In this document: positions 21,001 to 30,000 of the stretch, piece by piece
How the letters are laid out: each line of letters starts with the position of its first letter
How positions within the stretch are numbered: the stretch's first letter is position 1
Assembly: GCA_963666835.2 (NCBI GenBank)
Contig: CAXXGO010000006.1
Span: 480,001-544,000, forward strand
DNA length: 64,000 bases
Direction of reading: 5' to 3'
From: Phycisphaerae bacterium
GTDB taxonomy: Bacteria > Planctomycetota > Phycisphaerae > UBA1845
Made by a program: the position numbers

Positions 21001-24000
21001 CTCGTTAACCAGCGGTTGGATGGTTGTGCGGTTATCGTTCAGAAACCGGCCCCAACGCCGGCCGATCGCCTCGCGCACTTCAACCCGCTGCTCGGCGTCT
21101 AGTTCGAACTTGTCACTGAGATTGTCCGCCCAGCGCGTGAGCAGAGAGTCCATCAGCTTGGGCGTGGGCCAGATCCCCGCCACCGGCTCCGGCCGCACCG
21201 GGCCGACGAACTCGTCAGCAGGAACCACTTGCGCGGCCGCCGCACCGGCAAACAGGGTCAATACCGCCATTGCAGGGGCTGTTATCACCGACATGTTGGC
21301 TTGCTCCCTTCTACGCCGCCATTCGTTCGAGACCAACCCGCGGGGAAACCGGCGACAGCTCCGGCCACTGACTCGCCGATACAAGCTCAAGGTCACTGGA
21401 ACCGGGATATCCGCATGGACGTGCAGAACATTGTCTCAATTGTCGTGCCTACGTTCAACCGCCTCGGGCGGCTCCAGCATTGCATCGACAGAATCCGACG
21501 GAATGTTACCCATCCGCGCGAGGTAATCGTGGTCGACGGCGGATCCACCGACGGCACCCGCGAATGGCTCGCTGATCGGAGCGAACTGCGCGTGATTCTG
21601 GAACCCGAGCGTGAAGGGGCGGTCAGGGCATTCAATAAGGGGTTCCGGGCGGCGACGGGCCACTACGTCATGTGGCTCAACGATGATGCCTATCCACTAC
21701 CCGGCAGCGTATCGGCGGCCGTGGCTTTCCTTGAACGCCCCGACCTGGCCGACGTGGGTATGGTGGCTTTCTATCATCAATGGCACAGCCCGCGGAATGT
21801 GCTCGATCGGGTCGAGCATGAGGGCACATCGTACGAATTGTGCCACGTCCGCGGGTATCCCTACGCGAATTTCGGTCTGCTCCGTCGGACGTTGCTCGAG
21901 GAGGTCGGCTACGCGGATGAACGGTACTACTTCTTTGCGTTCGACCCGGACCTGTCACTGAAGATCCAGCTCGACCGCGGGCTGAAGGTCATCGGCTGCC
22001 GCAGGGCGCTCATTGCCCACGAGGAACATCACGACGAGCGTAAGCGCGAGGATCTGAGCCGCGGCGACGAGGACAATGCCAAACTGTTTGCCAAGTGGAA
22101 TCTGCCGCCACGCGGTGCGTATGCCGACCCAAGCTCCGCCTATCGGCAAATGCTCCAAGAGCGCGGACTGCTCTGAGGACCGCCCGGGCTACATGCCAAC
22201 GTTCCTAAAGGGATTGCCTATCGGCCAAAGGCGGGTCGCTCACGCTCGCCGTACTGAGGGGGCATCGCAGGCGCGTGTAGGGCACGGTCGAGGCACGAGA
22301 CCTGCCACAATGCCGCGTATCGCGCGAAGACCACGTAGGGCACGGTCGAGGGACGAGACCTGCCATCGACGTCGCAATGGGCCGAGTCGCACGAAGATGT
22401 GCCACGTGCGTGTCTCGCGGAACCAGCCCGCCAGGGCGACAGCTCTGCCTAGGCCCGCGGCGTGAGTCCTCGTTGTTCTACATATCATTCGACCCATCCA
22501 CCAACTGTAGCCGGCTGTCGATCTCGATTCTCCAGCCCGAAGGGCTTAAATGAAGTAGCCGGGGGGCAAGTCCGCCATCGGCGGACGCCGCCCACGGACG
22601 CGCTCCCCGCAACCAGTCTGCCCCTGAAAGGGTCAAGTGCCTTCGGCAAATGTGTTTCGCCATGACTTCTGACGCATTCTCAAAAAGCGCTGGGCAGCCG
22701 CAACAGATGCGCGGTTCATCGACACCTTCTCTTTCACTCTGTGAGGAGTTGTTTTTGAAGGCCGAACTCTTCGATGACACGTTGCACGCTCCGTATGCTG
22801 ATGGTCCAGCCACTCTGCGTGAGCTTCTGGGCAATGACTTCGGCGGAGGCTTGGGGGTCGAGGAAGCGGTGCCGGATGACTTGGCGAAGGACTTCGGCTG
22901 TGCGACGGTATTGGGTTTTCGGTCCGCGTTTGCGGCTTTGCAGTGCGCTGCTACCGGATTCGCGGAACGCGGCGCGCAACTGAAAGTAGCGTTGCTTGCT
23001 GAAGCCGAACTTCTGTGCAGCCTTGGTGGGGCCGAGGCCTTCGCATTCGCCTTCCAGCAACATGCAGAGTTTACGTGTCATCTCATCGTCGTCGCGTACG
23101 GGGAGCGTCCCGGCGCGGCCCACCAACGCCTGTCGTGCCTGGTCGAAGTTGGTCATTGCATGATCCTCCATGACTTCGCCGTCGCGTCGAGGTCCAGTGA
23201 CGCAACTGTCCACGGTGGAGGTTACCATACCCAGGCCGAAAAGTCTGATCATTTATGGCGTCTCCGTTAGCCCGTCCGGGGTATCTCTCCAGTATTGCTG
23301 GTGATCGCGAACTCTCAGGCGGAGAATGGCGGGTCTCGGACGCCGGAAGTCTCTTTGCCCCCGTAACATGAAACCGCAGCTCACGAACGAATCAACGAAT
23401 CGCAGGAGGATGATAGGAACAATCAACTAGCCCCAGAAAACCTCTGCCGTCGGGGTAAGCCTCCCATCTGACCGTAATCCCCCGGTAGCCGCTAGGCGGC
23501 AACCCTGGGCTGGAGGACACAGCGCCGTTGGCGTACTCGGACGGGACGCAGTCCGCACATCAGAGAGGACTTTCTCGTCTCGTCTGCCAAGGTTAGTTCC
23601 ATTGGGCTTTGCCCGACCTACTTGGCTATTCCCTTTCCTACGGGCAGTCCGCCGGTTGCGGGAACGGGTACGGGTCGCCCACGAATGCACTTACCGCACG
23701 CTGGACGTCGGTCATATTGACAATGGCGTTCGGGGTCACCGGGTCGAGGTCCGTCCATGCCAGCGGTGGTGCGGTCGGCGCGACTGAGAAGCACTGCAAG
23801 ATCGCCTGGATGTCGCTCATGTTCACGGTTCCGTTGGGTCCTGTCCAGGCGTAATCCGAGAATCCGCCCACCACGTCGGCCCAGAACTTAGGAGCCGGCT
23901 CGAGGATCGTCTCTACCGAGAAGGGATCGTTGAAGATTACACCGTCCTGCGTAGTGCGAATCTCATAGGTTCCGGTCGGCGCTATCGGGCAATCGGCGAC

Positions 24001-27000: not shown

Positions 27001-30000
27001 GGAAGCAAGAGCATCGGCCAGCTTGGCCTCCGCCACGTCCACGAGTTGCAAACCCGGCACGATGCGGTATTCCCGCAAAACACCTTTTACCTGGGCCGCT
27101 GCGTGCGCGGCTTGCTTATCCGCACGGCCCGCGACAGAGCGGAACCGCACCAGAAGTCGCTCGGGGTGATAGGGCTTGTCGTTCTTCTGGATACACGCTT
27201 CGCCCGATTTGTTTGCGGGTACCTGCCCGAAGTCCACGTCCGCCCGCACAGCCGATGCGAAGAACGCAACCGGCACCAAAGCCAGCACGAATCTGATGGA
27301 TGACATCGCACTTCCTCCGAGAGTGACGCCGCCGCGACCGGCCGGGCGACGAAGCCCCTACCGAGGCCGCGAGGTGAATGAGACACTATGATACCGGACA
27401 TACGCGAGGAATTCAACAGTTTTTAAGTTCCCACTGGGGGATTGTTGGGGTAAGCTGCCCGCCCGTCCGCATGCCTTGCTCTTCCCACGGGGCACGATCC
27501 AGCCGATGACCCACGCTCAGGCAGCTAATATCGGTCCTTTGGGGTGCCGATCAACTCAACGTGGGATTACTGCGCGTACCGAATCTGCGACCCGCGACCT
27601 ACGCAGCGTTTTTCTTGATCGCGATAGCCACATTGAACACCGGATGTGGCAACATAGCGTGTGCGCTGTTACCCGCCTCCCCGCCAACCGCGGTCATCAG
27701 TGCGGACCGGCATCGGCTCTCGCAGGCTCCGGGTTCATCCCTGGAAACCCAGCTAAGTGTATCCCCCGTAAAGGGTCTGCCTCCGTACAGCTTCGAATGG
27801 TCCGTAGTCGACCCGGCGGGGAGCCGGGCGGAGGTGCTTCTGGATTCTACGGACACCGCCTCGACCAACTTCACTGCCGGCGAGATTGAGGGCCCTTACG
27901 AGGTCTTTTGCACGGTCACCGATTCTTGCGGGCGGGCGTACACGGCAGGTGTGGTCTTACACGTCGGTGGTCAGGTCGGCCTGGACATCAGCACGGAACG
28001 CGTGGGGGTCGTTGCGGGCGGCGGGGTCGAGGGTCAGACTACCATTCAACTGAGCCCCAGCGCCGGAATACCGCCGTTCGACGTCAGTTGGACCTGCACA
28101 CGGCCGGACGGGCACGTGGACAATGACCGGCTCGACACCACGGACCCGTTGATGCCCGTCTTTACGAGCAGTGACGAGCTCGGGATCTACATCCTCACGG
28201 CCACTATAACGGACTCTTCCGGTGATACGTCGGTGGAATCCGTGATAGTCGTTGTCGGAGAGGTGCCCGGACTCGACATCACGGTTGATCGACCGTCGAT
28301 TGTGCCGGGCGGAGGCGAGGACGGGATGGCCCGCCTGCTGGCGACCCCGATCGGTGGTGTTGAACCCATTACGTACGACTGGGAGATCATCGATTCGCAA
28401 GGTGAGATCCGCAACGAGTTGCTCTGGGACACCACGGCGCGTTCTCCCGTCTTCCAGAGTCCGGACGAAACCGGGACGTACCTGGCACGGTGTGCAGCTA
28501 CTGATGTCGATGGCGTTGTGCTCATTGGCTCGACGACCATCCAGGTCGGCCGCCAGGTAACCGTGAATGTAGAGTCGGATCGGATGACGCTTCCGGCGGG
28601 CGAGTCGGACGGTGCTGAGGCCGCGCTTACCGCAGAGGTCCTGGGGGGGAGCGATCCCGTTGACGTGGAGTGGGCGGTCAGCGGGCCGAACGGGCGCGAT
28701 TACACCGACCTGCTTGATCGCGACGACGGGATGCAGGTCGTTCTTGCCCCGGGTACCGTACCTGGTCTGTACGCGGTCCGCTGCACCGTTACCGATGCCG
28801 ACGGCGTGTCAGCCGCTGATACGGTGGTTCTGACCATGGGGGGGACCCTGGGTTTGCTGGTTACCGCAGACCGAACGTCTCTAGCGACGGGCGGCGGGTC
28901 GCTATACGGGTCATCCGAGCTGACGGCAACGACTCACGGCGGAGCCTCGCCCTACACGTATTCCTGGTCCGTGGTTGATCCCTCCGGAAATCAGGCCTCG
29001 GCCCGCTTGGATAGCACCAATCGAGACAGCACCACGTTCACCAGTTCGTCGACGGTCGGGCTTCACACGGTAATGTGTACCGTGACGGATGCTCTCGGCG
29101 ACGTGGCGGCTGATTCCATCGCGATAGTCGTGGGGCAGCCTCTCAACGTCGATGTGACCGTCGATAGGCAGTCTCTGGTGCCGGGCGGCGGCGTCAGCGG
29201 ACAAGCTCAGCTACTCACCACCGTGAACGGTGGCGCGGCGCCGTACAGTTATACCTGGACGGTGCGCGATCCGGATGGAGTGGCGGCTCCGGCGCGGCTC
29301 AGCGACCTGACGGCCGCGACGCCGGTATTCACCAGCGCTGCGATCACCGGGACCTATCGACTCACCCTGACTACTTCCGACGCGACCGGAGTGGTGTTCG
29401 TTGATTCGGCCGAGGTGGTCGTCAGCGGGTCCAGCCTGGGCACGGCCGGGTTCTCTGTTGATGTTGCTACTAACCGGCTGACGATCGCCCCGTCCGGAGG
29501 GACCGCAACGCTTACCGCGTTCGTTACGGGAGGTATCGCCCCGATTACCTACGCCTGGACGATTACCGATCCCAGCGGCGCAGTAGACAACACGCGGATA
29601 GACTCGACGAGCAACTTCACGGCGACCTTCACTAGTGCGGCCATGCACGGGACCTATCGGGCGGTGTGCATTGCGACCGACGACTCCGGCAGCACCTTCA
29701 CCGACAGCGTGCAACTGACCGTGTCGGACGCTTTCACGCTCGATGTATCGAGTGATGTCACCCATGTGTCGCCCGGAGGAACGGTCAATCTCCTCGCCGA
29801 CCACAGCGGCGGCAGTCCCAACTTCACGTATCTGTGGAGCTGCGTGGATGATAGCAGCGTCGCCTCGGGCACCTTCGGCAGCGGCGCTACCGGAGTGGGA
29901 GCCGCCTTGCAGACCGTTGCCAATGACGCCACGAACACCTGGACCGCCCCGGCAGCGGGGCCGGGCACGCTGGGAAGTTATCGCCTGTCGGTTATCGCCA

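Follow-up and report, generated by a model that had tools for sequence, protein, structure and literature searches.

Secreted Subtilisin-Type Proteases of Phycisphaerae Very Probably Carry a Selenocysteine Placed to Bond a Cysteine of Their Own Propeptide

The window analysed in this study is a 64,000-nucleotide stretch of a Phycisphaerae genome, and its minus strand encodes a secreted subtilisin-type (S8) protease with one in-frame TGA. Our results suggest that secreted proteases of this type in Phycisphaerae very probably carry selenocysteine (Sec) in the substrate-binding strand, placed to bond a cysteine of their own propeptide. What is new in this analysis is the likely partner of the Sec, the propeptide cysteine. 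Our best reading, to which we give somewhat better than even chances, is that a selenium–sulfur bond tethers the inhibitory propeptide to the enzyme until it is reduced.

Gene Structure and Protein Architecture

The first-pass annotation described one continuous frame with a single TGA inside the Peptidase_S8 domain, and both the frame, on the minus strand, and the domain match bore this out. Its gene extent (23638..27288, 1,216 codons) was right in frame, but the start was corrected to the ATG at 27306, which is backed by GGAGG 7 nt upstream and a signal-peptide-like N-terminus; thus the protein has 1,222 residues and the TGA is codon 267. The minus-strand translation around it reads ...VALRFLGGGG-U-GGASDAIRAMEY.... 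The codon is also covered by a contig from a second sample, which shows 0 differences, so sequencing error is excluded. The features are as follows.

27314..27318, minus strand: GGAGG ribosome-binding site, 7 nt upstream of the ATG, from the sequence
23638..27306, minus strand: full gene of the secreted S8 protease, 1,222 aa, one in-frame TGA, stop TAG
27241..27306, minus strand: signal-peptide-like N-terminus, residues 1–22, ending AVRA, judged by eye
27193..27195, minus strand: Cys38, 14 residues ahead of strand beta-1 in the propeptide's N-terminal extension, candidate alternative partner, low model confidence
26944..27189, minus strand: I9-like propeptide, residues 40–121 (PF22148; profile match to the subtilisin BPN' prosegment 1SPB_P, E 9.7e-7)
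26950..26952, minus strand: Cys119, at P3 of the site where the propeptide is cleaved, the proposed Sec267 partner
25966..26943, minus strand: S8 catalytic domain with the triad Asp174, His229 and Ser394 and oxyanion Asn321
26785-26787, 26620-26622 and 26125-26127, minus strand: codons of Asp174, His229 and Ser394, respectively
26506..26508, minus strand: in-frame TGA, codon 267, proposed Sec, equivalent to subtilisin Ser101 and PfSUB1 Leu466 (S3 site)
26475..26489, minus strand: SECIS-like hairpin CCATC[CGGGC]GATGG, with its loop lying 21 nt past the UGA
25393..25959, minus strand: DCNxN repeats, Cys/Asp-rich
23641..24198, minus strand: C-terminal domain, 186 aa, common to 56 genome matches

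The Peptidase_S8 match scored 194 bits against a cut-off of 21.8 (E 3.8e-57), and the TGA codon lies within it, between His229 and Ser394. The Asp-His-Ser triad and the oxyanion Asn are present (D174, H229, N321, S394), all four residues are intact in 13/13 TGA genes, and a model with pLDDT 96.6 showed a subtilisin fold with an I9-like propeptide, on which the Foldseek and prosegment matches agree. By domain, triad and modelled fold the protein belongs to Peptidase S8 (subtilases), and its proteolytic activity is predicted, as is autocleavage of the propeptide at Thr121|Asp122. The 56 matches of the C-terminal domain include two secreted thioredoxin-like UxxC selenoproteins. This domain also resembles dockerins, which we note as a lead only.

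Family Distribution and Decoding of the UGA Codon

It is highly probable that UGA267 is decoded as selenocysteine by SelB and tRNA-Sec via the hairpin just downstream. The complete Sec machinery claimed for this genome was found (SelA, SelB, two SelD and tRNA-Sec), and SelA was present in all seven genomes having TGA genes. The family search of 101 genomes gave 75 matches, among which 13 carried one TGA, 61 had none and one carried TAG at another position; the 13 TGA genes are spread over 7 genomes and 3 genera. The five foreign TGA genes reported previously were recovered, but that set was incomplete, as seven more, from a second subgroup, had been missed, and the family is larger than reported. 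Order-wide searches with the queries used, which covered 178 genomes of other families, found neither a TGA-type nor a P3-Cys subtilase there; a phylum-wide DNA pattern search was discarded as uninformative because the pattern missed the window's own gene. Among the database matches, 52/120 end exactly at the position of codon 267, although these are truncated protein records in which the stop codon itself is invisible.

Purifying selection was seen on both sides of the TGA, with dN/dS of 0.11–0.36 downstream of it in 39 pairs, so that a conserved in-frame UGA has coding constraint on either side. Subgroups A and B carry different SECIS-like hairpins. The A-I-R/G-A-M hairpin proposed in the first-pass annotation holds for subgroup A, while subgroup B uses another, whose loop GGTC is the loop of a peroxiredoxin-like UPWC gene in the same genome. 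A hairpin was detected in 13/15 TGA genes versus 11–20/126 others, with a filter chosen after the hairpins were seen. The stems show one compensatory change and one G-U, the covariation score was matched by 47/500 shuffles, and single hairpins are weak (synonymous-recoding P mostly 0.15–0.27). A genome-wide coding-score scan for recoded stops was too noisy (156 TGA, 161 TAG and 91 TAA candidates) and served solely for codon usage and motif leads. The selenocysteine reading is well supported and stands on firmer ground than before; for it speak the machinery, the exclusive use of TGA, the downstream selection, the SECIS-like subgroup hairpins and a Cys homologue.

Two other explanations of the codon were weighed. 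That the UGA is a true stop in a split or decayed gene, perhaps with a restart at a Met ten codons downstream, is very improbable: databases list the N-terminal piece as a protein and an ATG lies at +10 codons in subgroup A, but subgroup B has none there, a stop would part Asp and His from Ser and leave a second half lacking a signal peptide, and a conserved strand and helix are encoded between TGA and ATG. The selection on both sides also speaks against it, as does the codon itself, which is TGA, never TAA or TAG, in 16/16 homologous genes seen as DNA. Hardly less improbable is that leaky readthrough or a suppressor tRNA puts a different residue (Cys, Trp, Ser) at the codon. This would suit a site at which many residues are tolerated across homologues (of 125, 53 have Ser, 12 Gly, 9 Thr and 9 Asn), but TGA ends more ORFs of the genome than any other stop (1,471/3,291), tRNA-Sec is its only credible UCA-anticodon tRNA, and there would be no reason for keeping TGA, hairpin and partner Cys. 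A second UCA-anticodon tRNA, listed by ARAGORN at a relaxed threshold, was rejected as not tRNA-like.

Cysteine Partner in the Propeptide

Sec267 aligns with subtilisin position 101, across from the P3 residue of the propeptide, according to the sequence register and PMC4024747. The end of the propeptide aligns gap-free with the BPN' prosegment, and Cys119 falls on the His of EEDHVAH; a single-sequence propeptide search of the PDB gave no match, whereas the profile search succeeded. The subtilisin BPN'/E-propeptide complexes (1SPB, 1SCJ), to which this alignment refers, differ in that the propeptide is bound non-covalently, P3 is His and residue 101 is Ser.

The P3 Cys occurs in 12/13 TGA genes versus 0/125 others, and in 0/213, 0/81 and 0/56 uninterrupted database stretches. 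Our first reading, that Sec is always paired with the P3 Cys, was rejected, as 42/54 members of the wider family are without it. Members lacking it mostly have a different propeptide Cys. Counting any propeptide Cys, the values are 47/55 scored forms versus 1/31 others, with none in 8/55 in the windows scanned. The P3 and extension cysteines are near-exclusive (17 forms with P3 only, 26 with extension only, 3 with both and 9 with neither). A scan blind to position 101 returned five P3-Cys subtilases reaching the site, three with TGA, one with Cys and one with neither; in the homologue L144 the P3 Cys is present and position 101 is neither Cys nor Sec. The combination of U and P3 Cys is found in both subgroups, though a single clade was rejected (p-AU 0.003), and independent pairs on well-supported branches number only 2–3, too few for significance; phylogenetic independence is low.

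Cys homologues at the U site are very rare, with one clear natural case, L142. Its complex model scored 0.88 against 0.00 for the best control, by a mark attained by 116/157 solved complexes and 2/215 mismatches; at least 98% of the contacts agree between runs, the partner pLDDT is at least 89, and Cys231 contacts Cys73 with an expected error of 0.8 A. This pass reflects the likeness to solved propeptide-subtilisin complexes, and what it tells is limited to which residues pair. A contact of the extension Cys is putative, since that residue is modelled as disordered (pLDDT under 55), and the AlphaFold models, having no strand bridge at the junction, are uninformative on the bond. Nor was the earlier view upheld that Sec stands in for a Ser and not for a redox Cys: with Cys there in L142 and propeptide cysteines accompanying the site, it behaves like half of a chalcogen bridge. 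Since the window protein has three chalcogen residues (Cys38, Cys119, Sec267), its pairing is ambiguous. Moreover, a Cys 2–4 residues before the catalytic His appears in 7/67 rows (6 distinct) versus 0/90, and in these six forms it is a possible partner within the mature enzyme.

Discussion

We propose that the protease is exported and would then fold upon its own propeptide, whose end would occupy the active site in the manner of a substrate, Cys119 facing residue 267, a geometry shown for homologues and modelled for the Cys/Cys homologue. A selenenylsulfide bond probably forms between Sec267 and Cys119. After self-cleavage, this bond would hold the inhibitory propeptide on the enzyme, which would therefore stay latent for as long as no thiol, sulfide or surface reductase cuts the bond. 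In members without the P3 Cys, the distribution suggests that a Cys of the N-terminal extension may serve as partner. The window has no reductase gene, nor was one found beside six of the TGA loci, and no conserved neighbourhood was found around the TGA loci.

Two other roles of the Sec can be set against this tether. The Sec may act in the mature enzyme, its selenol at the S3 site exchanging with substrate disulfides or trapping Cys substrates, with the propeptide Cys as an export cap. We consider this unlikely, yet it agrees with a partner whose position is flexible or missing (8/55), with position 101 facing the substrate P3 residue, and with C-x-x-x-U in three genes, which could resolve a mixed bond; most forms, however, lack a resolving Cys in the catalytic domain, and the P3 Cys is retained in the Cys/Cys homologue, as expected of a simple bridge. 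A mainly structural bridge to any nearby Cys, steadying the precursor or the 96-104 loop with no regulation, appears less probable still. The Cys before the catalytic His would fit it, lying near the natural 61-98 disulfide of aqualysin-type enzymes (PMC6602428), but the partner is mostly on the propeptide, which is normally discarded, and a plain Cys would suffice.

Deseasin MCP-01 (PDB 3VV3) was the best match both by sequence (E 1.3e-82) and by fold (47% identity, rmsd 1.7 A). It and related S8A subtilases likewise have an intact triad and an I9-like propeptide, but they have Ser at 101, no Sec and other C-terminal modules. In matrix metalloproteinases, the propeptide Cys of the cysteine switch binds the catalytic zinc and the secreted protease is latent until chemically disturbed, whereas here the propeptide Cys would bond Sec in a serine protease. 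Plasmodium SUB1 is a redox-switch subtilisin with a labile disulfide, Cys521-Cys534, by the oxyanion hole that is required for activity (PMC4024747). It has in common with our proposal the control of an S8 protease through a labile chalcogen bridge close to the active site, and its prodomain residues P2-P6 pair with the strand bearing the U-equivalent (PMC4024747). The SUB1 bridge, however, lies within the catalytic domain, while the proposed bond joins enzyme and propeptide, uses Se and would inhibit; the window catalytic domain has no Cys after Asn321 for a SUB1-type disulfide beside the oxyanion Asn.

The first-pass annotation had called this the first Sec-containing peptidase family, which is not the case, as the prediction of trypsin-like and MucD-like protease selenoproteins dates from 2008, with Sec replacing a widely conserved Cys (128 Cys homologues) (PMC2398784). 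These are likewise serine proteases with a predicted Sec, but they have other folds and no propeptide link, and their names are missing from the text of the 2026 selenoprotein inventory. The S8 family is not among the 119 families of that inventory, and no NCBIfam selenoprotein model scored above its cut-off for the window protein. With bacterial SelB/SECIS selenoproteins the family shares the in-frame UGA, a candidate hairpin 3' of it that has a G near the start of its loop, and full machinery; it differs in that Sec arose at a Ser/Gly site outside known redox motifs, with one Cys homologue.

If our reading is true, a hydrolase family joins the selenoproteome, a propeptide bond released by reduction is a previously undescribed way of keeping a protease off, and the role of Sec extends beyond catalysis and metal binding to a reversible inter-chain lock. 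Dozens of database proteins would be shortened annotations of this family, which would escape methods requiring Cys homologues. A Sec at a Ser/Gly site, accompanied by a partner Cys and by a SECIS embedded in helix-coding sequence in what appear to be two lineages, would make a tractable case of selenoprotein origin. More tentatively, and with odds that we put below even, a Se-S zymogen latch in two subtilase lineages with different SECIS hairpins may be released at the cell surface by the secreted thioredoxin-like selenoproteins sharing the C-terminal tail, giving redox-gated extracellular proteolysis. The natural Cys/Cys homologue L142 makes the latch testable without Sec expression.

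In-frame UGA of the subtilase gene

The protease gene was described in the first-pass annotation as one frame interrupted by a single TGA, and this was confirmed on the minus strand; the 1,216 codons proposed there are replaced by 1,222, counted from an ATG with GGAGG 7 nt upstream, so that the TGA is codon 267.

23638-27306, minus strand: frame of the secreted S8 protease, start codon ATG at 27306
26506-26508, minus strand: in-frame TGA
23641-24198, within the protease frame: C-terminal domain, 186 aa
27561-32195, divergent gene upstream of the protease: 1,544 aa with PKD/SprB/Ig repeats
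22734-23252, downstream of the protease: helix-turn-helix, transposase-like remnant

A fervidolysin-like prodomain and Peptidase_S8 were recognised by Pfam, and the TGA splits the catalytic set, with Asp174 and His229 before it and Asn321 and Ser394 after it. A second sample yielded a 151-nt contig that spans the codon with 0 differences; another contig, identical over its full length, may be the source of the window. In a ~91%-identical relative (runs X4 and X5), six extra bases lie in frame around the position of the TGA (window 26498-26512). Two close relatives carry Phycisphaerales protein names at NCBI, and no NCBIfam model scored above its cut-off for the protein.

The genome encodes SelA, tRNA-Sec (68.4 bits), SelB adjoining selA and two SelD (C1:1328296-1329225 and C6:1524365-1525294), one with an in-frame TGA and the other with none. 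SelA permits selenocysteine (Sec) but does not discriminate, since it was found in 96 of 101 family genomes. TGA is the most frequent stop of the genome (1,471/3,291), and no credible UCA tRNA besides tRNA-Sec was found in it. The stop at the site was TGA in 16/16 genes seen as DNA (13 genomic and three metagenomic, one of the latter duplicating locus L005), and for the 39 pairs whose dS was unsaturated, dN/dS over the 120 codons past it was 0.11-0.36. We consider it very likely that UGA267 is decoded as Sec; the subtilase family is real and probably Sec-containing, and its structural rationale is specific and testable.

Two selA matches in other genomes (G064:C353:688-1782 and G039:C45:137684-138694) contain one TGA of their own, which may reflect an error, a pseudogene or recoding. 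ARAGORN also called unusually long tRNAs besides the normal ones, tRNA-Ala of 94 and 92 nt and tRNA-Thr of 91 nt (C1:279033, C1:1822143 and C6:1113519), which could be either miscalls or tRNAs of a non-canonical type.

The claim that this would be the first Sec-containing peptidase does not hold, because trypsin-like and MucD-like protease selenoproteins were predicted earlier (PMC2398784; PMC9312934; a supplement row of PMC12013277). No subtilase was returned by a term search of the 119-family inventory of PMC13188914 with parts 1 and 2 of the three of its section 7, or by term searches of the main texts of PMC13326102 and PMC12013277 and the accessible portions of their supplements, of which that of BSepDB lists organisms. 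Our literature search, mainly of open-access papers, found no S8 selenoprotein and, at listing level, no propeptide-enzyme bridge of the kind proposed below.

Distribution and hairpins

The family search gave 75 matches in 46 of 101 genomes: 13 with one TGA (seven genomes, three genera), 61 without a stop and one with TAG, 25 codons beyond the TGA site. Frames were scored on the DNA of 51 of these matches, 79 GTDB loci and the own paralogues (138/139 scored). The TGA genes fall into subgroup A, whose six genes share 59-64% identity with the query, and subgroup B, in which seven genes of one genus are 43-47% identical to it and carry an insertion ahead of the catalytic Ser. In a quick LG+G4 tree of 58 rows with the trait columns removed, A and B as a single clade were rejected (p-AU 0.003), and subgroup A alone was not. 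This is compatible both with independent origin and with recombination between paralogues. Genome G018 (contig C1; L006, L035-L037, L040) has six TGA-type S8 genes, drawn from both subgroups, and two of these lie in tandem.

When the N-terminal fragment was used as query, 120 database proteins were returned, of which 52 stop exactly 37 or 38 residues past the catalytic His; any other offset was shared by three proteins at most. Three of the 52 match genes whose TGA was read in DNA, and we infer that the stop of the remainder is TGA.

The hairpin is CCATC[NG(G/T)GC]GATGG in subgroup A, whereas in subgroup B it is GACTC[GGTC]GAGTC. The synonymous positions of the B stem are invariant in 8/8 while the base immediately outside it varies; one gene has both sides of a pair changed (A-U to C-G) and another has G-U. 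Similar loops, such as CTCCGA[GGTC]TCGGAG, occur in putative selenoprotein genes of this genome, which were chosen from a noisy list by their motifs. A hairpin was present in 13/15 TGA genes versus 11-20 of 126 others under a filter set after the hairpins were known, the per-gene P was mostly 0.15-0.27, and the covariation score was matched by 47 of 500 shuffles. The support that the hairpins lend to Sec is modest.

A propeptide cysteine opposite the probable Sec

The TGA codon aligns with Leu466 of SUB1 (published numbering), the equivalent of subtilisin Ser101, which is described as a residue of the S3 site (PMC9312984). It is reported that prodomain residues P2-P6 of SUB1 pair antiparallel with Lys465-Leu469, with P9 Glu, P7 Asp and P4 Val as conserved residues, and that P3 faces the solvent (PMC4024747). 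Applied to E113-P-D-Y-R-V-C119-A-T, this register places Cys119 at P3, the third residue before the predicted propeptide cleavage, facing residue 267. In the propeptide profile alignment, it falls on the His of EEDHVAH in 1SPB. The Sec position moves by one residue, and loop insertions follow it in some genes.

A P3 Cys was found in 12/13 TGA genes versus 0/125 others, and in 0/213, 0/81 and 0/56 uninterrupted database stretches. When metagenomes were scanned for the P3 Cys by itself, 21 loci were found. Six were subtilases: TGA was present in three, one was truncated, L142 had Cys at position 101 (subtilisin numbering) and L144 had neither. Across the 279 genomes searched in the order, hits of this pattern were confined to subtilases whose TGA had been identified before. 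The complex model of L142, a natural Cys/Cys homologue, scored 0.88 versus 0.00 for the best control, a mark reached by 116/157 solved and 2/215 mismatched pairs; Cys231 is predicted to contact Cys73 (expected error 0.8 A). The pass of this model reflects likeness to solved complexes. The S4 loop of L142 (519-1763) also contains a C-Q-C motif, and the L142 frame continues upstream into another secreted protein.

In the wider set, 12/54 anchored proteins ending near the TGA site had the P3 Cys, and most without it combined Tyr at P3 with a Cys located 8-24 residues ahead of the first propeptide strand, in an extension that is predicted to be disordered. With three duplicates and nine unscorable rows left out, the Cys was at P3 only in 17, in the extension only in 26, at both in three and at neither in nine, one of which has Cys at P6. 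Some Cys of the propeptide was thus present in 47/55 versus 1/31 TGA-free family members (eight more were unscorable), and TGA-free members nested within the clade had neither a P3 nor an extension Cys. The near exclusion of P3 and extension Cys (Fisher p 5e-5, kinship ignored) suggests that a single Sec has either of two partners. Only two or three independent pairs lie on strong branches, and the N-terminal fragment of eight forms showed no partner Cys. In six forms, a Cys precedes the catalytic His by 2-4 residues, close to a natural 61-98 disulfide described in PMC6602428.

Proposed latch

Once cleaved, subtilisin propeptides remain in place as bound inhibitors, and thiols readily undergo exchange with Se-S bonds. 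The frame, the Sec machinery, the conservation, the register and the co-occurrence are observations; as an interpretation, it is fairly probable that Sec267 would be joined to a propeptide Cys by a Se-S bond. We lean, if only slightly, towards the whole mechanism, in which such a latch would delay propeptide release until reduction. At P6, seven TGA genes carry a further Cys that forms CxxC with P3, and three have CxxxU; either motif could resolve a mixed bond. No reductase gene adjoins the protease gene.

C-terminal domain and other candidates

The C-terminal domain has 56 matches in the genome; in the atlas, it resembled unnamed Planctomycetota clusters (0.94) and dockerin only at 0.85. Since two of the three secreted UxxC thioredoxin-like candidates share it (43% and 52% identity), these and the protease may be displayed together.

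C6:886751, plus strand: secreted thioredoxin-like UxxC frame
C6:954496, plus strand: secreted thioredoxin-like UxxC frame
C1:1961944, plus strand: secreted thioredoxin-like UxxC frame
C6:417381, plus strand: G-U-G frame with a strong hairpin
C7:86324, plus strand: G-U-G frame with a strong hairpin
C1:1903505, minus strand: peroxiredoxin-like frame, W-U-P-W-C, hairpin CTCCGA[GGTC]TCGGAG

The two G-U-G frames are presumably DUF1573-like. UGC is listed for the DUF1573 family in the 2026 inventory. The three UxxC frames have a near-identical SECIS-like hairpin and long fused tails.
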